A stretch of DNA of 64,000 bases from Pseudomonadota bacterium (GTDB lineage: Bacteria; Pseudomonadota; Gammaproteobacteria; Pseudomonadales; JADFDG01): NCBI GenBank assembly GCA_049324495.1, contig JBMOOP010000058.1, forward strand, positions 65,275 to 129,274, read 5' to 3'. Numbering within the stretch: position 1 is the first letter of the stretch; every line of letters starts with the position of its first letter. A program made the position numbers and the translations under genes. Shown here one piece after another: positions 4,106-64,000 of this stretch. A model generated the notes under the pieces. The model saw only the letters and a list, made by a program, of their open reading frames with translations, searched no databases and was not told the DNA's origin.

Positions 4106-4789
4106 TTACTGCGGTCGGTAAAGGGCGTGGTGTTCGATGTAGGCACACACCGTGGCGGGGACGCCGTTGGGGTGCCGTCCTGCCGCGAAGGCCGCGCGAA
4201 TGGCCGTTGATGCCATGTTAGCAGCGGTCGTGGCCTCGATCAGTATGCGGCCGCCCGGGCTGCTGCGCAGCGCCTCGGGGTCGCCCGTAAGGTGTGCGGC
4301 CAACTCGCCGAGCTCGCGCGCGGTCGGCATGCCCTGGCCGGGGCGGGTGCAGGCGACGAGATGAGCCTGCGCGAGGATGTCCTGCCAGCGCCGCCAACGG
4401 GTGAACTGACGCAGCGAGTCCATGCCCAGCACCAGCACGATGGGCGTACCGGCCGGCAATTCGCTGCGCAGCTCCCCGATTGTATCGATGGTCCAGCTCG
4501 GGCCGTCGCGCGCTAACTCACGGGTGTCGATGGCGAAACCGCGTTCGTGGGCGATGGCGATCCGCAGCATGGCCAGCCGGTGCAGCCCGGAGGCCTGCGG
4601 GTCGTCGCGATGTACCGGATTGCCGGCGGGCAGGAAGTGAACGGTTGTACCAAGGAGCGCGCGGACCGCACGCGCAACGGCGAGATGGCCGTCGTGCACG
4701 GGATTGAAACTGCCGCCGAACACGACATGCGGCCCGCGTGCCGCCAAGCCATCCACGGCTGCTTGTTTTTCAGCAGCGATTTGTTTCAC
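4106..4789 (-). CDS. nadD: Nicotinate-nucleotide adenylyltransferase NadD
   Basis: C-terminal 228 codons of ORF 4106..5293, containing [12 protein letters not shown] (the (H/T)xGH nucleotidyltransferase motif). GTG 4789 overlaps the proA stop (GTGA). The upstream part of the ORF is antisense to proA and was discarded. Confidence 0.88.
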
Positions 4790-21015: not shown

Positions 21016-22077
21016 ATGTCAGCACGCTCTTCGCAACAACAGCCCCCCCGCCGCCACACACTGCTTGTCGCGCTTCTGATTCTCGTGGCGGCGTTGGTGG
21101 CGTCGCTGAGTCTGTGGATGACGGCGCCGCCCGCAGCGGCGCCGGCTACCACTGCCGCACCACCGCCACCGGCCAATTCGCTGCCGGTGGTGGCCGGGCT
21201 CGGCGGCGATTTCAGCCTGTCTGCCGCCACCGGTGCCGACGTATCGCTCGCCGGGTTGCGCGGCAAGGTTGTGCTGCTTAATTTCGGTTTTACCCATTGC
21301 CCGGATGTGTGTCCGGCGGTGCTGAGCCGGTTGGGCAACGTGCTGCGCGCGCTGGAGGAACAGGGCGTGGACATGCGCCGCGTGCAGCCTTTGTTCGTGA
21401 CCTTCGATCCGGCGCGCGACACGCTTGAACACCTGCGCGAGTACCTGGCGTTTTTTCATCCGTCGATCATCGGCTTGCGCGGCGACGACGTGCAGACGCG
21501 CGAGATTGCGCGGCGCTACCGGGTGATATACCTCAAGCAGGACAGCGAAGCGGCCAGTGGCTATGTTTTCCAGCACAGCAATTTTGTTTATGTCCTCGAT
21601 ACCTATGGCCGTGTGCGCTTGTTGGTGGGCAGCAAGGATCCGGATGCGGCGTTGAGCGAGGCGGTGAAGCGTCTGCTGGCCGAGGCGCAGGCAGCGCCGG
21701 CCCCTGTTGCGGGCGGCTCAATCCGGATTGTCGATGCCTGGGTACGCGCGGTGCCGGCGGCCTCGGAAACCAGTGCCGGTTATCTGGTCATCCACAATGA
21801 TTCCGCCAGGGACGACGTTCTGATCGGGGCGCGTATCGCTGGTGTGAGCAGCACCGGGATCCATGAAACGGTGGCGGATGGACAGACCATGACGATGCGT
21901 CGCCGCAGCGAGGTCCAGGTGCCGGCGCATGGTCGCGTCACTCTGGCGCCAGGCGGCCTGCATTTGATGCTGAGCGGTCTGTCGCAGCCATTGCAGGCCG
22001 GCGAGCAATTGCGGGGGGTATTGAAATTTCGCGATGCCGGGGAGATTCCGGTATTGTTGGGTGCGCGCGGCTTCTGA
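21016..22077 (+). CDS. Membrane-anchored Sco1/SenC::PCuAC copper-chaperone fusion
   Basis: N-terminal TM helix, a Sco1 thioredoxin-like domain with CPDVC (starting nt 21298), then a C-terminal domain. The C-terminal domain matches the PCuAC motif H-x10-M-x21-H-x-M exactly (HETVADGQTMTM...GGLHLM). Confidence 0.85.
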   Translation: MSARSSQQQPPRRHTLLVALLILVAALVASLSLWMTAPPAAAPATTAAPPPPANSLPVVAGLGGDFSLSAATGADVSLAGLRGKVVLLNFGFTHCPDVCPAVLSRLGNVLRALEEQGVDMRRVQPLFVTFDPARDTLEHLREYLAFFHPSIIGLRGDDVQTREIARRYRVIYLKQDSEAASGYVFQHSNFVYVLDTYGRVRLLVGSKDPDAALSEAVKRLLAEAQAAPAPVAGGSIRIVDAWVRAVPAASETSAGYLVIHNDSARDDVLIGARIAGVSSTGIHETVADGQTMTMRRRSEVQVPAHGRVTLAPGGLHLMLSGLSQPLQAGEQLRGVLKFRDAGEIPVLLGARGF

Positions 22078-50549: not shown

Positions 50550-50632
50550 CCAGGCTCTCTCTGCCGGAATTCCATCTTGTTGATTTTTTTAAGGGATTTC
50601 ATCACGAGAAATGCTGGTTACCCCCGCAATTC
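50550..50632 (+). repeat. Copy 1 of an ~83-nt intergenic repeat
   Basis: The 26-nt core CTGCCGGAATTCCATCTTGTTGATTT (50561-50586) matches 63331-63356 at 25 of 26 positions. The blocks CCAGGC, AAGGGATT and GTTACCCCCG are shared in the same order and orientation. Confidence 0.8.
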
Positions 50633-55139: not shown

Positions 55140-56039
55140 TCACTGCTGCCGGGGACGCAATGCCTGAAAATCCTGGCGCTCGGCCACGAACGGTGGGCGT
55201 GGAGGTTGGCCGCAATAGGGGGCTTTCGGCAGGTTTTCCGTGCTGTTGTAGACGAAAAACAGGTTGCTGCGCGGCCACGGGCTGATGTTGTTGCCGGAGC
55301 CGTGCAGTGTGTTGCTGTCGAAAACAATCACGGTGCCAGCATGGCCGATTGCGGTGCTGATGCCATCGCCGGCCAGCGACGCGATAAGTGTTTCGTCCGG
55401 GATTCCGACGTGCTGTTCGCGCAATGAGCTGCGAAAGTGGTTCGCCGGCGTGGGCTCGGGGCATGACAGAAACCAGCGATGCGAGCCAGGTACAAGCAGC
55501 AACGGGCCGTTGGCCGGCGTGTTGTCGGTCAGCAGTATCGACATACTGAGGGTGCGCATGGCCGGGATGCCATCCTCTGCATGCCAGGTTTCGAAGTCCG
55601 AGTGCCAGTTGAAGCCGCCGCCGCGAAACGCCGGCTTGTAGTTGATACGTGACTGATGAACATAGACTGCGCTGTCCAGCAGGAACTCGGCGATGTCCAA
55701 CAGGCGGTCGTCGCGCAGCAGGCCGTCGATCACCTTGCTGTGTTGTTGTGGTTGGAACAGTGAACGCAGGTCGTTGCTGTTGCTCTCACGTATTGCTGAA
55801 TCCAGTCCGAGAAGCTTGCGGTCAGCCTGCAGGCGGGCCGCTTCTGCTTGCAGAATCTCGACATCGTGGCCCGAGAGCAGCTCGGGTAGCAGAAGGAATC
55901 CCCGGTCGCGCCACTGGCGGCACTGCAGGGGCGTCAACGGGGCGTTGGCGTGCCAGTCGTGCCAGAGGACCGGCTCTTCGCGGCGCAGCACTGCAGGCTT
56001 GCCGCCATGGCGGGTTGGATAGCGATCGTCAGCGTTCAT
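55140..56039 (-). CDS. ectD: Ectoine hydroxylase EctD
   Basis: 299 aa carrying the EctD signature FNWHSDFETWHAEDGIP (consensus FxWHSDFETWHxEDG[ML]P), a non-heme Fe/2OG dioxygenase. Confidence 0.93.
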   Translation of the reverse strand: MNADDRYPTRHGGKPAVLRREEPVLWHDWHANAPLTPLQCRQWRDRGFLLLPELLSGHDVEILQAEAARLQADRKLLGLDSAIRESNSNDLRSLFQPQQHSKVIDGLLRDDRLLDIAEFLLDSAVYVHQSRINYKPAFRGGGFNWHSDFETWHAEDGIPAMRTLSMSILLTDNTPANGPLLLVPGSHRWFLSCPEPTPANHFRSSLREQHVGIPDETLIASLAGDGISTAIGHAGTVIVFDSNTLHGSGNNISPWPRSNLFFVYNSTENLPKAPYCGQPPRPPFVAERQDFQALRPRQQ

Positions 56040-56675: not shown

Positions 56676-57071
56676 TCAGGACGCCGCTGTGCCGGCGGCC
56701 GGATAGGCGCCTTCCTCGTCGTGCACTTCCTGTCCGGTCAGCGCTGGTGCAAAAACGCAGGCCAGTTCCAGTCCGCTGGTCGCGCGCAGCAGGTGGCGGT
56801 CGTGGTGGTTGAGCAGATACATCGTGCCGGGCGTGATCGGGAACACCTTGCCGTCCGGCAATGTCTCGACTTCGCCCTCACCGCGAATGCAGTACACCGC
56901 CTCGATGTGGTGTTTGTACCAGATCAACGTTTCGGTGCCGGCATGAATGACCGTGATATGGAACGAGAAGCCGGCGCGATCGTCTGCAAGTACCAGCCGG
57001 ACACTTTCCCAGTTTTCGGCAGTGACCCGCCGTTCTGTGCGCCGGGTCTCCGCAAGGGTACGAACGATCAT
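56676..57071 (-). CDS. ectC: L-ectoine synthase EctC
   Basis: 131-aa cupin: [67 protein letters not shown]... Confidence 0.95.
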
Positions 57072-58366
57072 GGACGGAACATCCCTGCCGCGATGCGCAC
57101 CGCGTGCGGACTGCTGCGTTCTCGCTGCGCCATGACGTTGCGCATGAGGATGGCCATGCCACGCTCAAGGTCGTCGTTGGTGATGGTCAACGGGCACAGA
57201 ATCTTCAGCACCTGATCGCGCGCGCCGCTGGTTTCCACGATCAGACCCTGGTCGAAACAGGCGCGGGTGACCGGCATCGTGAACTCCGCGCCGGTGGTAT
57301 GCAGGCCGCGCATCAGGCCGCGGCCTGTTGCGGTAAAGCCGGCACAGCGGTCGGCAAGCTCCTGCAGGCAGTCGCCGACATATTCGCCCTTGCGCCGCAC
57401 TTCAGCGTTGAGCTGGTCGTTCTTCCAGAAGGTCTCGATGGCGCGGGCAGCCGTGACAAACGCAAGGTTGTGCCCGCGGAAGGTGCCGTTGTGCTCACCG
57501 GGCTCCCAGACGTCGAGGCGGGGATCGATCAATACCACGGCCATGGGCAACCCGTACCCGGACAGCGATTTCGACAGAGTGATGATGTCCGGGCGAATGC
57601 CGGCTTCCTCGAAGCTGAAGAAATTTCCGGTGCGTCCGCACCCCGCCTGGATGTCGTCGACGATGAGCAGGACGCTGTGCTTGCGGCATACCCGCTGCAG
57701 ACTGCGCAGCCAGCTTGCCTGCGCTACATTGATGCCACCTTCGCCCTGCACGGTTTCGACGATTACCGCTGCCGGCAGATCAACGCCGCTGGAGGCGTCG
57801 CTCAGCGTCTTGTCCAGATACACAGTTGAATCAATACCTTCTCCAAGGTAGCCGTCGTACGGCATGCGCGTTACGCCGGTAGGATCGACGCCGCCGCCGC
57901 CGCGATGATGCCGGTTGCCGGTGCATGACAGTGCGCCGAGCGTGACTCCGTGAAAGGCATTGGTGAACGCGACGATGTTGCGTCGGCCGGTGGCCTTGCG
58001 CGCGACCTTGAGCGCGGCTTCCACGGCGTTGGTGCCGGTGGGGCCGGTGAACTGCATCACGTACTTGTATCCGCGCGGCATCAGGATGTGTCGCTCGAAC
58101 ACTTCGAGAAAGTGCTGCTTGGCGGCGGTGTGCATGTCGAGGCTGTGCACGACATGGTTCTGGTCGATGTACTCAAGCAGCGCTTCCTTCAAGGCCGGGT
58201 GGTTGTGGCCGTAGTTGAGCGAGCCCGCTCCGGCGAGGAAGTCGATGTAGCTGCGGCCCCTGTTGTCGTGCAGGTGGCTGCCCTGCGCGGTGGTGAATAC
58301 CACCGGAAAAGACCGGCAATAACTGCGCACCGCCGATTCGAGGCGGTCAAAGGTGGTGGTTTGCAT
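57068..58366 (-). CDS. ectB: Diaminobutyrate--2-oxoglutarate transaminase EctB
   Basis: 432-aa class-III aminotransferase with an EctB-type N-terminus ([29 protein letters not shown]...) and the PLP-Lys region [10 protein letters not shown]. It overlaps ectC by 4 nt. Confidence 0.95.
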
Positions 58367-58409: not shown

Positions 58410-59471
58410 TCAGGCGCCTGGTCTGGCCTCCTGTTCCGGTGCCGGGTTCTGGTTGGTGGTACCGTCCGCGGAAGTGAACGGACCGACTTGCAGCAGCCAT
58501 TCGGAGTCGTGGCTGCCTTTGAGGTGGCGCTGGCGATCGAACAATAACTGGCGGCTGAGTGCCGCCTGGCGTGATCGGGCCAGCGCCGCGAACAGCGCGG
58601 CGGATGCCGTGTTGTCCAGGGTCACGGTGGTTTCGAGCTGGCACACATGCGCGCAGGCGTCGCGCGCGAGCAGGTTGTCGAGCATGCGTTGTGCAAGCCC
58701 GCGTCCCCGCTGGCTGGGGTGCACGGCAACCTGCCAGATAAACAGGGTGTTGTTGCGATTCGGCAACAGGTACCCGGATATGAAGCCCACGACCTGGTTG
58801 CCGCTCGTGGCGACCACGCAGGTGTCACGGAAGTGGGTGCACTGCAGCAGGTTTGCGTACAGCGAGTTCTGGTCCAGCGGCGGGCAGATGCGGATCAGCG
58901 CATGGACATGTGTTCCGTCATCAACCGTTGGCGCACGCAACTGGACATCATTGTCGGCGGCGCTTGTGGTGTTGATCGGAACCGGCGAGCGGCGCGGGAA
59001 TTGTTCAGGAATATTGCCGAGGGTGAGCATCGGCGCCGCATCAATGTCGCCGGCCCCCATCATCGTGGCTACATGCTGCAGGGAATCCACGATCCGGTCG
59101 CGTTGAGCCGGGGTCAGTTGCTCGAACCGGGCCTGGAAGTCTGCCTGCAGAGGCGTCGGCGAACCTTCCAGTAATCGGCTTCCTGCTTCCGTGAGCGCCA
59201 CGTTGACCACGCGTTTGTCCTGGCTGCCACGGCTGCGGACGACGAGCTCACGCTCTTCCAGGCGGTCAAGGATGGTGGTGACGGTGGCCTGCGAAAGGCT
59301 GACCTGACTGGTCAGGAACCCCAAGGTGGCGCCCGGGTGCGCCGCGATAGCACGCATCAGTACGCTTTGGGGAATGGTCAGCCCGGCGGTGCGGCTGAGG
59401 CGCTTCGAGTTCTGGTCGGTGGCCCGGATGATCCGTCGCAGGGCCACCAGCACTTGGTCCTGGTGGGGCAT
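58410..59471 (-). CDS. ectA: In-frame fusion of a MarR-family (EctR-like) regulator and diaminobutyrate acetyltransferase EctA
   Basis: aa 1-136 form a MarR wHTH domain ([18 protein letters not shown]...[17 protein letters not shown]). aa ~176-335 match EctA ([30 protein letters not shown]...[17 protein letters not shown]...). There is no stop codon or frame change between the two parts. Confidence 0.85.
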
Positions 59472-59954
59472 GGGGGAAGACCTTATGTTTCGAGGTCGAC
59501 ATAATCCCCAACTAATAGTTCGATGTCAAAGTATATGCCTGCTCAGAGCGGCCGGCTGTGGGCCGCGAGCAAGGGAGACGCATTTATGGGGGGCTTTGCC
59601 TGCCATGTTCAAGGATCCCCAGAAGGCAGCACGAGACCTTCTGTCCACCGATGCCTGCGGCCTCACGCCGCGCCCACCGTCGTCGATGCAGATCGCGCCC
59701 GCAAATTGCCGGCAGAAATACTGGTCTTGTACCGGATCAAAGGGCAGCTTCGTACAGCAGCGGAACTCGCCGGCGGTACACATGGCATTGCGACGATCAC
59801 GACATCCTCCTGGCCAACCGTAGCGAGTTGGAGCAATCCGGCAGTCGTGCACTGGCGGTGAAACTGCTGCCCAGGCTCGTCGACCAGCCAATGGCCAGCT
59901 ACAGTGGTGCGCGGATGGCGGTCGAGGCCGGGGAGGACGATCTACGTGGGCGAG

Positions 59955-60563
59955 ATGCAGCAAGCGGGCGCGGCAGGCAATGACCTGTTGCGAGACAACG
60001 CGTTTCTCGGAGCGCTGCGCGCGCAGATGGTGCGTTTTGCGACGCTCCAGTTGAATGACCGCAACCTCGCCGAGGACGCCGTGCAGGACGCACTCGCTGC
60101 CGCGCTGCGCAATGCGGGTTCGTTTGCAGGACGCTCCGCGTTGAAAACCTGGGTATTCGCCATCCTCAAGAACAAGATCATCGATGTCATCCGCCAGCGC
60201 AGCCGCATCGTCTACACGGGCAGCCTGATCGGGGAGGACGAGGACGGGGATTCCACGCCGGCTCTTTTTGATCAGCGCGGGCACTGGAAGCCCGAGGAGA
60301 AGCCGGCGGACTGGGGTGTGCCCGATCTCGCGCTGCACGACGAGCAATTCTGGCGCGTGTTCGAGACCTGCCTCGATGGCCTGCCGGCGCGTCAGGGGCG
60401 CGTGTTCATGATGCGTGAGTTCGTGGGGCTGGAGGCTGATGAGATCTGCACGGCGGCCGGGATATCGACGAGCAATCTGCACGTACTGCTGCATCGTGCG
60501 CGCCTGCGCTTGCGTGAGTGCCTGGAAAACAAGTGGTTCGACGGGGGGTGTGAAACATGCTGA
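59955..60563 (+). CDS. ECF-type sigma-70 family sigma factor
   Basis: ATG 59955. Region 2 (DAVQDALAAALRNAGSFAGRSALKTWVFAILKNKIID) and region 4 (LPARQGRVFMMREFVGLEADEICTAAGISTSNLHVLLHRARLRLR) are both present. Confidence 0.88.
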   Translation: MQQAGAAGNDLLRDNAFLGALRAQMVRFATLQLNDRNLAEDAVQDALAAALRNAGSFAGRSALKTWVFAILKNKIIDVIRQRSRIVYTGSLIGEDEDGDSTPALFDQRGHWKPEEKPADWGVPDLALHDEQFWRVFETCLDGLPARQGRVFMMREFVGLEADEICTAAGISTSNLHVLLHRARLRLRECLENKWFDGGCETC

Positions 60564-60760
60564 GCTGCGAAGAGGCAACCCGCTTCATGTCGGATGCCAT
60601 GGAGAGGCCGCTTACCGTCAGGGATCGCCTGTCGCTCAATGTGCACCTGGTGATGTGCAAGGGCTGCCGGACTTTCAGTCACCAGGTGCAGGGTTTGCGC
60701 CAGATAGCGCGCGAATACGCGCAGGGTCGCGGCGATCCGAAGGACGACGGGTCAGCCTGA
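60557..60760 (+). CDS. Small zf-HC2 (ZAS) anti-sigma factor, no TM segment
   Basis: 67 aa, overlapping the sigma gene stop by 7 nt. It has the HxxxCxxC motif (HLVMCKGC). Confidence 0.75.
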   Translation: MLSCEEATRFMSDAMERPLTVRDRLSLNVHLVMCKGCRTFSHQVQGLRQIAREYAQGRGDPKDDGSA

Positions 60761-61366
60761 GCGTCCTGCCGCCCGCGCCAGCCACCAGTCCGCGCTCACG
60801 TAGCGCCCGCCACCGATAAAAAACAGCGCCAGCAGCATCACGAAGTAGGTCGCGGCGAACTCGATGCCGTTGTTCAGCACGACAAAATTGCCGCTGCTGG
60901 TCAGCCAGTCGTAGTTGCCGTGCTCCTGCAGAATCTCTTTCGCGCGGTCGAGTTTCTCCACCGCTTCGAGCACGCGCTCGTTCGCAAACGGTGCGCCCGG
61001 ATCGGCGATGGCCTGCCAGCCGTTCTCCAGGTGCACGGCCGTCGCTGCGACCAACATCGTCACCATCAGCGGAATCGCGATCCAGCGCGTGGCCAGCCCG
61101 AGCGCCAGCAGCACGGCACCGACGAGCTCGGTGGACGTGGCGAGGAACGCCATCAGCCAGGGAAACGGCAGGCCGAGGCCCCAGTCCGGGTTGCCGAACC
61201 AGGCCACGGTACTTTCGAAGTCGGCGAGCTTGTGGGTGCCGGCCATCCAGAGCACCGGCACGAGGAACAGGCGCAGCGCCAGCGGCGCCAGGCCGTCGAG
61301 ATGGCGCAGCGGGCGCATGACGGCGTCGTGGATGCGGAAATACAAAGTGGTGGCGCGCTGGAACAT
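60752..61366 (-). CDS. DoxX-family inner-membrane protein (long form)
   Basis: ATG 61366 after GGAGA. It has DoxX-type helices (LRLFLVPVLWMAGTHK..., STELVGAVLLALGLATRW) plus a soluble insert ...GNYDWLTSSGNFVVLNNGIEF. It is divergent from the EGKCG peptide gene. Confidence 0.85.
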   Translation of the reverse strand: MFQRATTLYFRIHDAVMRPLRHLDGLAPLALRLFLVPVLWMAGTHKLADFESTVAWFGNPDWGLGLPFPWLMAFLATSTELVGAVLLALGLATRWIAIPLMVTMLVAATAVHLENGWQAIADPGAPFANERVLEAVEKLDRAKEILQEHGNYDWLTSSGNFVVLNNGIEFAATYFVMLLALFFIGGGRYVSADWWLARAAGRSG

Positions 61367-61528
61367 GGGTTGTCTCCGGTAGGTGTTCCGACTTGGACGG
61401 ACCAGCAGCGTATGGCTTACAGTCGTGCCTGCGAAAGTTCTCGTGGGTCTGTGTGTAAGAAATCGCAGTCAGCCCCGTCCAATCCCCGGAACCGCCACGG
61501 TGGCGGTCGTTACCCAAGGAGATTTCCC

Positions 61529-61897
61529 ATGCGTCCGATTTCCCGTCTCTCGTCCCTCGCCGGTGCGTCCGTCGTAGCTGCCCTGGCCCTGCCGATGGCG
61601 GCCCACGCCGCGAGCAACCCGTTCCATGCCGTCGACATCGCCGGCTACCAGGTCGCCGAAGCGGATGCTGCCAAGCCGGAAGGCAAGTGCGGTGAAGGCA
61701 AGTGCGGCGCGAAGAAGAAGGCTGAGCAGGAAGCCAAGACAGCCGAAGGCAAGTGCGGCGAAGGCAAGTGCGGTGGCGACAAGGCCGCCGAAGGCAAAGC
61801 CGCCGAAGGCAAGTGCGGCGCGAAGAAGAAGGCTGAGCAGGAAGCCAAGGCAGCCGAAGGTAAGTGCGGCGAAGGCAAGTGCGGCGGCAAGAAGTGA
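61529..61897 (+). CDS. Secreted EGKCG-repeat peptide; putative MNIO-type copper-binding RiPP precursor (HvfA/bufferin-like)
   Basis: ATG 61529 after AAGGA. The signal peptide ends AHA/AS, then NPFHAVDIAGYQVAEA, then seven EGKCG motifs in a Lys/Glu/Ala-rich 72-aa tail. Total length is 122 aa. Confidence 0.85.
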   Translation: MRPISRLSSLAGASVVAALALPMAAHAASNPFHAVDIAGYQVAEADAAKPEGKCGEGKCGAKKKAEQEAKTAEGKCGEGKCGGDKAAEGKAAEGKCGAKKKAEQEAKAAEGKCGEGKCGGKK

Positions 61898-61924
61898 TCG
61901 GCAACGGTTGAGGAGGGGTTCACC

Positions 61925-62057
61925 ATGTCGGGGGTTTCGGGTGCCGGGCTTGGCCAGCGCCGCGATGGACGATCTGGCGACCCTTCCGTCGCCGCTCGTC
62001 GCGCCCGATTTCCTCGATGTGGCGCCGGAGAACGGGATCGGCAGCTGCAGTTCGTAA
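61925..62057 (+). pseudogene. Frameshifted 5' stub of a DUF692/MNIO-type maturase gene
   Basis: A strong RBS (GAGGAGGGG) and ATG 61925 lie 28 nt after the peptide stop. MSGVSGAGLGQRR is read in one frame, then AMDDLATLPSPLVAPDFLDVAPENGIG in the +1 frame, ending at TAA 62055-62057. This resembles the DUF692 N-terminus (GLGLR...EvapENw). No further homologous sequence follows before csoR. Confidence 0.5.
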
Positions 62058-62130
62058 ATGCCGAGCTGGCAGAGGCCGATTGCGCGCTGCTGAGGGCAAC
62101 GCCGGCCGCCGTCAGGGAATCCTTGGCGGC

Positions 62131-62412
62131 TCACAGGTACTTGGTGATCTCCTTGAGCTCTTCGAGCGAATCCCGCTTGCCTTTGCGGGCGGCCTCGATG
62201 GTGTGCTCCAGGCAATGATCGATATGGTCCTGGATCAGCGTCCGCTTGGCCTGGCAGACCGCCTTTTCGACGGCGTGCAGCTGCTGCGCGATCTCCGTAC
62301 AGGAACGCGCTGCCTCGATCATGGTGACGATGCTGTCGATGTGCCCGCGTGCGCGCTTCAGTCGCTTCGCGATGTCGGTATGACTTTCATGCAGGTGTGG
62401 GTGGTCAGTCAT
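62131..62412 (-). CDS. CsoR/RcnR/FrmR-family metal-sensing repressor (CsoR-type C-H-C fingerprint)
   Basis: 93 aa. C38, H63 and C67 are spaced 25 and 4 residues apart, like the Cu(I) ligands C36/H61/C65 of CsoR. The N-terminus is His-rich (HPHLHESH). Confidence 0.85.
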   Translation of the reverse strand: MTDHPHLHESHTDIAKRLKRARGHIDSIVTMIEAARSCTEIAQQLHAVEKAVCQAKRTLIQDHIDHCLEHTIEAARKGKRDSLEELKEITKYL

Positions 62413-63264: not shown

Positions 63265-63317
63265 ATTTGCTGGAGATTCCGAACCAAAATGGACTGATTC
63301 GGAAGACGTACTGGTGG

Positions 63318-63400
63318 CCAGGCCCCCTCCCTGCCGGAATTCCATCCTGTTGATTTATAAGGGATTCCGCCGCAAAAAATGGGGTGTTACCCCCGGATTC
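63318..63400 (+). repeat. Copy 2 of the ~83-nt intergenic repeat
   Basis: See copy 1. The core is CTGCCGGAATTCCATCCTGTTGATTT at 63331-63356. Confidence 0.8.
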
Positions 63401-63499
63401 GTCCCGGATTTTTCTCGCTGCAAACAGGATCCTCGGTGTGAGTGCGAAAGCCCCTGTTTCGCTCACAACTTGTTGCAACTCCAGTTGCGGATTCGAACG

Positions 63500-63829
63500 T
63501 CAGCCGTCGCCGGATTCGTTCATCCACGCCGGTATGTCGCGCTCGCCATGCAGGACGCGCCAGACGTCAACGTGATCCGCGTTCTCGACGTAGAAAACCA
63601 GGTACGGAAATTTCGCGAGCGGCCAACTGCGCAGGCCCGGCAGGTTCACCTCGTGCGCATACCGGCTGGAGCCACTCGCGGGATGGCGACCGATGTGACC
63701 ATAGGCTTTTTCCAGCGCCGCGATGAAATCAAGGGCGGCCTGTTCGGCTCCCTCGTTCAGGTACCACGCGATGGCATCGTCCACATCCCGGTTGGCTTGC
63801 TCCCGGGGAACGACGGGCTTGCGGGTCAC
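63500..63829 (-). CDS. parE: ParE/RelE-family type II toxin
   Basis: 109 aa (VDDAIAWYLNEGAEQAALDFIAALEKAYGHIGRHPASGS...FPYLVFYVENADHVDVWRVLHGERD). The GTG start overlaps the antitoxin stop (GTGA). Confidence 0.88.
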   Translation of the reverse strand: MTRKPVVPREQANRDVDDAIAWYLNEGAEQAALDFIAALEKAYGHIGRHPASGSSRYAHEVNLPGLRSWPLAKFPYLVFYVENADHVDVWRVLHGERDIPAWMNESGDG

Positions 63830-64000
63830 CGACGCTTTGTCGCCGTCGGGCGGAGCCGGTCAAGCAGCCCCTGGAAGTAGTCCGCGTCAGCGGGCGCGGC
63901 AGGTGCGGATGCAGCCCCTGCCAGCAGCAGGTTGCGCAGCTTCAGGCGGTCCTGGTCCTTGCGGATCAGCTCGCGCACGTACTCGCTGCTGGTGCCGTAT
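63826..64000 (-). CDS. parD: ParD-type RHH antitoxin (3' part; 5' end outside window)
   Basis: The minus-strand translation ...YGTSSEYVRELIRKDQDRLKLRNLLLAGAASAPAAPADADYFQGLLDRLRPTATKRR* has the typical ParD C-terminal region. Confidence 0.8.
   Translation of the reverse strand, partial: YGTSSEYVRELIRKDQDRLKLRNLLLAGAASAPAAPADADYFQGLLDRLRPTATKRR

Follow-up and report, generated by a model that had tools for sequence, protein, structure and literature searches.

Near the 3′ end of the 64-kb window examined here (64,000 nucleotides of contig JBMOOP010000058.1 from a Pseudomonadota bacterium, the whole stretch of DNA that was analysed) lies an hvf, or oxazolin-type, copper-peptide operon, in which the gene for the precursor peptide, hvfA, has been kept while the genes for its maturation enzymes, hvfB and hvfC, have decayed. 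It is very probable that the precursor is orphaned in cis. Two features define the peptide gene:

61529 to 61897, plus strand: hvfA, encoding a 122-amino-acid precursor of the HvfA family (Buf_EGKCG/oxazolin type), assigned from its translation, from the NCBIfam model NF050137 and from leader conservation.
61694 to 61887, plus strand: in-frame internal duplication of hvfA, comprising two 83-nt copies (61694–61776 and 61805–61887) with a period of 111 nt.

The open reading frame (ORF) of hvfA runs from an ATG at 61529 to the last base of its stop codon at 61897, and its ribosome-binding site (AAGGAGA, 61516–61522) lies 6 nt 5′ of the start codon. The translated product comprises a signal peptide (aa 1–27), a conserved N-region (aa 28–47), and a Lys/Glu/Ala/Gly-rich core (aa 48–122) with seven EGKCG motifs, which start at aa 51, 56, 73, 78, 93, 110, and 115. 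All the cysteines of the protein (residues 54, 59, 76, 81, 96, 113, and 118) are found within these motifs. A basic n-region (Arg2 and Arg6), a hydrophobic core at aa 9–25 (Kyte–Doolittle value of approximately 2), and AHA/AS at aa 25–29 together make HvfA a predicted Sec substrate, on a heuristic reading of sequence and hydropathy. The leader NPFHAVDIAGYQVAEA is conserved in an alignment across seven related lineages. The good ribosome-binding site, the Sec signal ending in AHA/AS, the short conserved-looking leader, and the seven EGKCG motifs as sole source of cysteine had all been described in a sequence-only reading of this DNA, and each was recovered here, as was the internal duplication of about 83 nt with its 111-nt period. 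The two copies of the duplication are identical at 80 of 83 positions. The duplication is not present in the nearest intact relative, locus L103, whose HvfA core differs and contains six cysteines (loci of related lineages are given L numbers throughout). Tandem Repeats Finder (TRF) also reports 15-nt and 66-nt periodicities within hvfA, the former being the motif spacing. Across all frames of the window, hvfA is the only ORF with at least two KCG motifs. Its leader (61529–61678) is much closer to that of L083 (synonymous divergence, dS, of 0.146) than are the adjoining doxX (dS 0.544) and sigma factor (dS 0.561) genes, and the hvfA and doxX trees conflict in the comparison with L083 and L103, which suggests that recombination within the locus moved hvfA segments between lineages.

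The peptide passes the HvfA-family domain model NF050137 (KCGExKCG_twice) at 55.6 bits against a cut-off of 19.5 (E = 3e-15, in three stretches), but remains below the strict HvfA equivalog model NF050188 (76.1 bits against a cut-off of 95). The search of precursor models proposed in the sequence-only reading thus came out positive at the level of the family domain and negative at that of the equivalog; no Pfam model matches the peptide. By these scores it is a member of the known HvfA/Buf_EGKCG/captophorin-precursor family, and not an HvfA equivalog. EGKCG/HvfA peptides are a widespread, recently described class of copper-binding peptides made on ribosomes and modified after translation (RiPPs), and in Haemophilus an HvfA-type peptide acts as a virulence factor. 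The assignment agrees with the earlier link of the EGKCG repeats to a precursor family whose cysteines are modified by a multinuclear non-heme iron enzyme (MNIO; DUF692) together with a DUF2063 partner (PMC11252979, PMC12452194). In working systems, HvfB and HvfC turn the cysteine of each EGKCG motif into a copper-binding heterocycle, which was originally described as oxazolone/thioamide (PMC11252979). That chemistry, which the earlier reading had given, has since been revised to a 5-thiooxazole (PMC13097082; preprint 10.64898/2026.07.17.739211), the marks of which are a shift of −4 Da per cysteine and absorbance at approximately 305 nm (PMC11252979, PMC13097082).

Searches with HvfB sequences match the window at three short collinear pieces only, located directly 3′ of hvfA:

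61925 to 61963, plus strand: hvfB (MNIO) remnant 1, codons 1–13, MSGVSGAGLGQRR, with L11Q in the GLGLRR motif; located by tblastn and DNA alignment to L083 and L103.
61964 to 62042, plus strand: hvfB remnant 2, codons ~15–41, in the +1 frame, MDDLATLPSPLVAPDFLDVAPENGIG, with W39G in the PENW motif.
62043 to 62092, plus strand: hvfB remnant 3, codons 156–172, LQFVNAELAEADCALL, abutting remnant 2 and ending at a direct repeat.

Remnant 2 is 75% identical to the HvfB of L083; the tblastn E-value of 2e-11 covers this match chained with remnant 1. In total, 58 of the 285 hvfB codons are left (1–41, frameshifted, and 156–172), and the stub ORFs match no Pfam or NCBIfam model. The DUF692-like stub mentioned in passing in the sequence-only reading is therefore genuine hvfB sequence, but in the form of a wreck. 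HvfC left no trace in the window by tblastn or by a six-frame search with profile hidden Markov models (HMMs), and the same searches, with maturase profiles built from 17 HvfB and 15 HvfC sequences of related loci, found no further MNIO or DUF2063 gene in the 64 kb.

The course of this decay can be read from locus L103, a 3950-nt metagenome contig that was found by a scan with the HvfA peptide and whose flanks and gene order match those of the window. L103 carries the genes for a sigma factor and an anti-sigma factor, doxX (minus strand), hvfA, hvfB, hvfC, and csoR (minus strand), in that order. Its hvfB encodes 285 aa (PF05114, 331.6 bits), and its hvfC product contains PF09836 and PF22106. 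The two sequences share 88% DNA identity over window positions 59893–62042 and 94.5% over 62080–62297. Relative to L103, loss of 5 nt after 61963 has put hvfB out of frame at codon 14, and 62042 and 62043 have been brought together by a 340-nt deletion. A third deletion of approximately 1137 nt, at 62092/62093, removed the rest of hvfB, the whole of hvfC, and the operon terminator hairpin. It is flanked by imperfect 13-nt direct repeats (TTGCGnnCTGCTG), of which the copy in the window is TTGCGCGCTGCTG (62080–62092); accordingly, L103 2557–2606 aligns with window 62043–62092, and L103 3731–3948 with window 62080–62297. Compared with a functional MNIO–PME1 cluster, the locus has neither an intact MNIO (PF05114) beside the precursor nor an HvfC/PME-type 1 protein (PF09836 and PF22106). 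Because hvfB bears a frameshift and two large deletions and hvfC is gone, the locus is unable to modify the peptide by itself, and its earlier description as a candidate for a working modification cluster does not hold. The terminator that follows hvfC in L103 (3705–3733; a hairpin and TTTTT) falls inside the segment deleted from the window, so that transcripts from the hvfA promoter could run antisense into the convergent csoR-family gene (62093–62412). The same deletion leaves a 97-aa junk ORF open at 61925–62218.

On the window branch, the stub has accumulated five clear non-synonymous changes, including L11Q and W39G, against one synonymous change, with two further unpolarised amino-acid differences; by this count, it is decaying under relaxed constraint. 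It is nevertheless as similar to L103 (91.5–92% identity) as the live neighbour genes are (91.5–95%, with dS of 0.21–0.29), and the inactivation of hvfBC therefore looks recent relative to the split from L103.

Two other reconstructions were rejected. A fourth hvfB fragment (HvfB residues ~195–228 at 59700–59813; tblastn E of 0.008–0.06, HMM E of 0.59), which would have implied a circularly permuted operon, belongs instead to the frameshifted remains of an unrelated ORF of 159 aa, which L083 carries intact upstream of its sigma factor gene (E = 2e-11). L083 was also considered as the ancestor model, which implied the loss of six further genes and a DUF6064 C-terminal remnant at 62098–62127; it was replaced by L103 because hvfC of L103 is directly convergent with csoR and the contig carries the same spacer. 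The remnant of the 159-aa ORF spans 59602–59884 (plus strand) in three frames, and in L027 the same slot is occupied by a 1.2-kb parDE-like insert. On this sequence comparison, the flank of the hvf locus is a hot spot for decay and replacement.

The loss of hvfBC recurs among relatives. Lineages with a DoxX protein 80–96% identical to that of the window fall into four states:

Intact hvfABC: L103, L083–85, and L102.
About 70 hvfB codons kept (~96–167), followed by TetR/RND genes: L086–92, L099, and L100.
hvfA kept, hvfBC without trace: L081 and L082, L094–97, and L133.
No hvfA, with sigma, anti-sigma, and doxX present: L134.

In L081, L094–97, and L133, the deletion edges are found 88–136 nt 3′ of the hvfA stop codon. 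In L081, egtD-egtB follow hvfA directly, while L102 has hvfABC and one further gene before the same egtDB. The hvfB remnants of the window and of L086 overlap by only a few codons; therefore, neither derives from the other, and hvfBC has been deleted several times. This independence rests on the remnants and not on a phylogeny, as neighbour-joining bootstrap values on doxX were implausibly low even for near-identical sequences, and that tree was not relied on. The closest relatives, L027 and L098, stop inside doxX and ~30 nt upstream of doxX, respectively.

In the orphan loci, hvfA with its promoter and ribosome-binding site is intact, as is doxX, and so are the sigma and anti-sigma genes where the contig reaches them. 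Between L081 and L094, both clean orphans, the ratio of non-synonymous to synonymous divergence (dN/dS) of hvfA is 0.11 at a dS of 0.78, and the 30 EGKCG codons differ by eight synonymous and no non-synonymous changes; for the leader, dN/dS between orphan lineages is 0.09. By these ratios hvfA is under strong constraint between orphan lineages, although part of this purifying selection may predate the losses. HvfX-like DoxX genes are also found in other settings. In L001–L080 (e.g., L001 10678–11871 and L002 10607–11809), roughly half of the DoxX genes with 58–76% identity to the HvfX of the window have no hvfA, hvfB, or hvfC within 10 kb, and a conserved ~400-aa gene follows instead in approximately 10 of the 30 such loci inspected. 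The HvfX-like subfamily of DoxX is thus not confined to MNIO clusters.

The genes and regulatory elements surrounding hvfA are as follows:

59955 to 60563, plus strand: extracytoplasmic function (ECF) sigma factor (PRK12544, 302.8 bits; TIGR02943; Pfam Sigma70_r2 and r4_2).
60557 to 60760, plus strand: anti-sigma factor of the zf-HC2 type, 67 aa (NF052368, 70.9 bits; PF13490), overlapping the sigma factor gene.
60752 to 61366, minus strand: hvfX, a DoxX membrane protein of 204 aa (NF050144, PF07681), divergent from hvfA.
61393 to 61421, minus strand: putative ECF-type promoter for doxX, the mirror image of that of hvfA (TGTAAG-N16-CGTCCAA).
61454 to 61483, plus strand: putative ECF-type promoter for hvfA (TGTAAG at 61454–61459, a 16-nt spacer, and CGTCCAAT at 61476–61483).
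61491 to 61507, plus strand: stem-loop ACCGCCA-CGG-TGGCGGT with a 7-bp stem, at the predicted 5′ end of the hvfA mRNA.
62131 to 62412, minus strand: CsoR-family metal-sensing repressor (PF02583, 75.2 bits), convergent with the hvf operon.

The doxX gene lies 162 nt from hvfA, and its product scores 246.7 bits against the HvfX-family model NF050144 (cut-off of 80). The sigma factor ORF as called opens at GTG 59904; the ATG at 59955, which gives 202 aa (202–205 aa in relatives), is the likely start. Together with the overlapping zf-HC2 gene, whose product has C4 and H30-x3-C34-x2-C37 and no membrane segment by inspection, it has the domain make-up of an ECF sigma/ZAS-type anti-sigma pair (Sigma70_r2 and r4_2, followed by H-x3-C-x2-C). 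The motif TGTAAG-N16-CGTCCAA occurs twice in the window and no more, where chance alone would give 0.18 matches. Across the nine lineages aligned, the Acinetobacter locus L013 among them, both elements have hardly changed, with GTAA and CGTC-AA invariant, and from this conservation we infer that they are target promoters of the adjoining ECF sigma factor. A simple scan for sigma-70 promoters and terminators found nothing relevant at hvfA. The stem of the hairpin at the 5′ end of hvfA is kept while its loop varies, with one compensatory change of the outer pair (A:T in the window, G:C in L102); its fold energy is no better than that of shuffled sequence (z = −0.10), and a function is suggested by conservation only. 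Rfam and tRNA scans of the 59–64 kb region gave no match.

The CsoR-family protein has the Cu(I) ligand set Cys38/His63/Cys67 by inspection, and its gene is found at the same place in L103 and L083. It scores below cut-off on all the specific NCBIfam models (RicR, at 42.7 bits, FrmR, and RcnR), and may respond to copper and regulate the locus alongside the sigma factor. In several lineages the gene has kept its linkage to the sigma/doxX/hvfA unit, on differing sides (window 62131–62412, minus strand; L086 5464–5742; L083 3416–3697; L103 3785–3946). A VTT/DedA membrane protein gene (Pfam) is also found downstream, likewise convergent. At a distance from the operon, a single 353-aa ORF (21016–22077, plus strand) fuses SCO1/SenC (PF02630, 135.9 bits) to PCuAC (PF04314, 109.9 bits). 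The divergent DoxX gene, the nearby CsoR-type repressor, and this Sco1::PCuAC fusion at 21 kb had been offered as context in the earlier reading, and all three are present.

In the proposed mechanism, metal or thiol stress would act through the cytoplasmic zinc-finger anti-sigma factor to free the sigma factor, and hvfA and hvfX would then be transcribed. HvfA would be exported by Sec and cleaved after AHA. Conversion of its cysteines to copper-binding 5-thiooxazoles would be impossible from the locus, and any maturation would need an MNIO–partner pair elsewhere in the genome. Such maturation in trans is taken as the most likely state of HvfA, albeit tentatively, with a probability somewhat short of even. 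Precursors unlinked to an MNIO make up a sizeable share, and of the 2583 complete genomes that carry EGKCG precursors just 67 are without any MNIO (PMC12452194); in most cases, a stand-alone precursor therefore has an MNIO in the same genome. Maturation in trans fits both the conservation of the leader in the orphans and the fact that loss of hvfBC has been tolerated repeatedly, and redundancy of this kind would also explain why the cis copies of hvfBC have been lost repeatedly in the clade.

Several points weigh against this reading. A second MNIO–partner pair was not seen in the 64-kb window, which is part of a 134-kb contig of a metagenome-assembled genome (MAG). MNIOs of this class are substrate-selective (PMC13097082), and a second MNIO therefore need not accept the HvfA peptide. 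The deletions are known from that one assembly only. As the loss is recent, the intact hvfA of the window says little on selection after it, and the purifying selection between the other orphan lineages may itself largely predate their losses.

The same recency suits the strongest of the alternatives, that of a recent relic: the operon would have just been inactivated, hvfA would still be intact because it is short and little time has passed, and the peptide, unmodified if made at all, would be heading for loss. This explanation is rather unlikely, but it is the best of those competing with maturation in trans. It is consistent with a stub no more diverged than its live neighbours, with the decay hot spot, as seen in the frameshifted remnant at 59602–59884 and the different insert there in L027, and with L134, which retains sigma, anti-sigma, and doxX without hvfA; the lost terminator, moreover, permits antisense transcription into csoR. 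A relic sits poorly with five lineages that lost hvfBC by differing deletions while hvfA, its promoter, and its ribosome-binding site were untouched in all, or with the strong constraint on hvfA between orphan lineages. In the window itself, the in-frame duplication in the core increased the count of perfect motifs.

The persistence of the same four genes after independent losses of hvfBC can also be taken to mean that sigma factor, anti-sigma factor, DoxX, and HvfA are self-sufficient, and that the exported peptide works unmodified: its seven thiolates, which the DoxX protein may handle or keep reduced, would bind Cu(I) or other thiophilic metals, and the thiooxazole would be dispensable. The paired and conserved promoters of hvfA and doxX agree with such a unit, stand-alone precursors are allowed to stay unmodified in PMC12452194, and the role of DoxX is unsettled (PMC11252979, PMC13097082). 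We consider this improbable. The N-region, which is thought to be recognised by the partner protein, is strongly constrained in the orphans (dN/dS 0.09), and a plain thiolate chelator has no obvious need of it; a functional unmodified EGKCG peptide is without experimental precedent, and very few complete genomes carry EGKCG precursors without any MNIO (PMC12452194). Less probable again is the bolder form of the idea, in which the thiooxazole is dispensable throughout the clade and the four-gene module is a self-contained stress unit whose unmodified, DoxX-handled Cys-repeat peptide buffers copper or thiol stress. If true, the repeated independent deletion of hvfBC would be a natural experiment in which a RiPP reverts to a plain secreted metallopeptide.

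Finally, it is very improbable that mis-assembly or a chimeric MAG consensus created the hvfB–hvfC deletions and that the real operon is intact. In favour of such an artefact, the sequence comes from a MAG, a search for a second assembly across the stub found none (L027 and L098 stop within doxX or shortly before it), and there is no other record of the exact peptide. Against it, the locus bears three separate lesions together with point changes at conserved residues, a 13-nt direct repeat marks one junction, as a real deletion predicts, and a sister lineage shows another hvfB remnant in each of nine independent assemblies, so that such decay is real in the clade.

For genome mining, the locus is a caution that a precursor, a DoxX gene, and a DUF692-like ORF need not form a working cluster, as the maturase here is provably destroyed. 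Syntenic loci with intact, half-deleted, and cleanly deleted hvfBC, in which the precursor, DoxX, and the ECF promoters are kept, provide a natural comparison set that can be used to ask whether stand-alone precursors undergo maturation in trans or function unmodified, and what DoxX does. Stand-alone precursors in general are already known, and the locus brings no new chemistry; what appears to be new, on these alignments, is the base-level reconstruction of how one orphan precursor arose, and the recurrence of the same loss in sister lineages that keep the precursor–DoxX–sigma unit.

Elsewhere in the window, a 353-aa MarR::GNAT-acetyltransferase fusion (58410–59471, minus strand; Pfam HMM) heads a set of ectoine-like genes, which from the look of their sequences resemble ectB (57068–58366), ectC (56676–57071), and an ectD-like hydroxylase gene (55140–56039), all on the minus strand. 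A ParE toxin gene (63500–63829, minus strand; PF05016, 47.3 bits) is accompanied by a probable ParD antitoxin gene on the same strand, which runs from 63826 past the window end at 64000; a copy with 75% identity lies between the sigma factor and ectoine genes in L027. A repeated non-coding element of ~70–170 nt with the core GGAATTCCATCTTGTTGATTTATAAGGGATTCC is found beside parDE modules, at 63312–63482 and 50555–50626 in the window and at ~4400–4620 and ~13450–13660 in L083; Rfam and tRNA scans gave no match to it.

Among known systems, the hvfX-hvfA-hvfB-hvfC operon of nontypeable Haemophilus influenzae, which produces HvfA/oxazolin (PMC11252979; 10.64898/2026.07.17.739211), shares with the window a precursor with a Sec signal, a short N-region, and a C-terminal (A)EGKCGEGKCG run. 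Both peptides belong to the NCBIfam HvfA-family domain, and both have a DoxX (HvfX) gene beside the precursor. Unlike H. influenzae HvfA, the peptide of the window is under the equivalog cut-off and is without the two N-terminal disulfide cysteines. The two operons also differ in that hvfB of the window has been reduced to 58 codons and hvfC is missing, while the ECF sigma/anti-sigma pair and the CsoR-family neighbour have no counterpart among the four genes described for H. influenzae. Fontiphorin (FonA/FonBC, from Fontimonas thermophila) and the captophorin MNIO-PME1 clusters (PMC13097082) are likewise based on EGKCG-repeat precursors of Pseudomonadota. Fontiphorin has seven modification sites, the same number as there are EGKCG motifs in the window peptide, and captophorin clusters co-occur with DoxX and transcriptional regulators, with Cu sequestration as their proposed role. 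For fontiphorin, however, the MNIO and PME1 are intact and a 5-thiooxazole product has been demonstrated, whereas the enzymes of the window are deleted and the system is known from its genes alone. The closest parallel to its orphan state is found in the stand-alone Buf_EGKCG/oxazolin precursors and the bufferins (PMC12452194; PMC11626156), for which a survey reports MNIO-unlinked precursors and discusses modification in trans or none. The core set in that survey consists of precursor, MNIO, DUF2063, and DoxX, with sigma and anti-sigma genes in the Buf1 bufferin clusters; the anti-sigma factor there is of the NrsF type, that of the window of the short zf-HC2 type. Unlike the surveyed stand-alone genes, the orphan hvfA of the window can be traced to specific deletions by comparison with an intact near relative.

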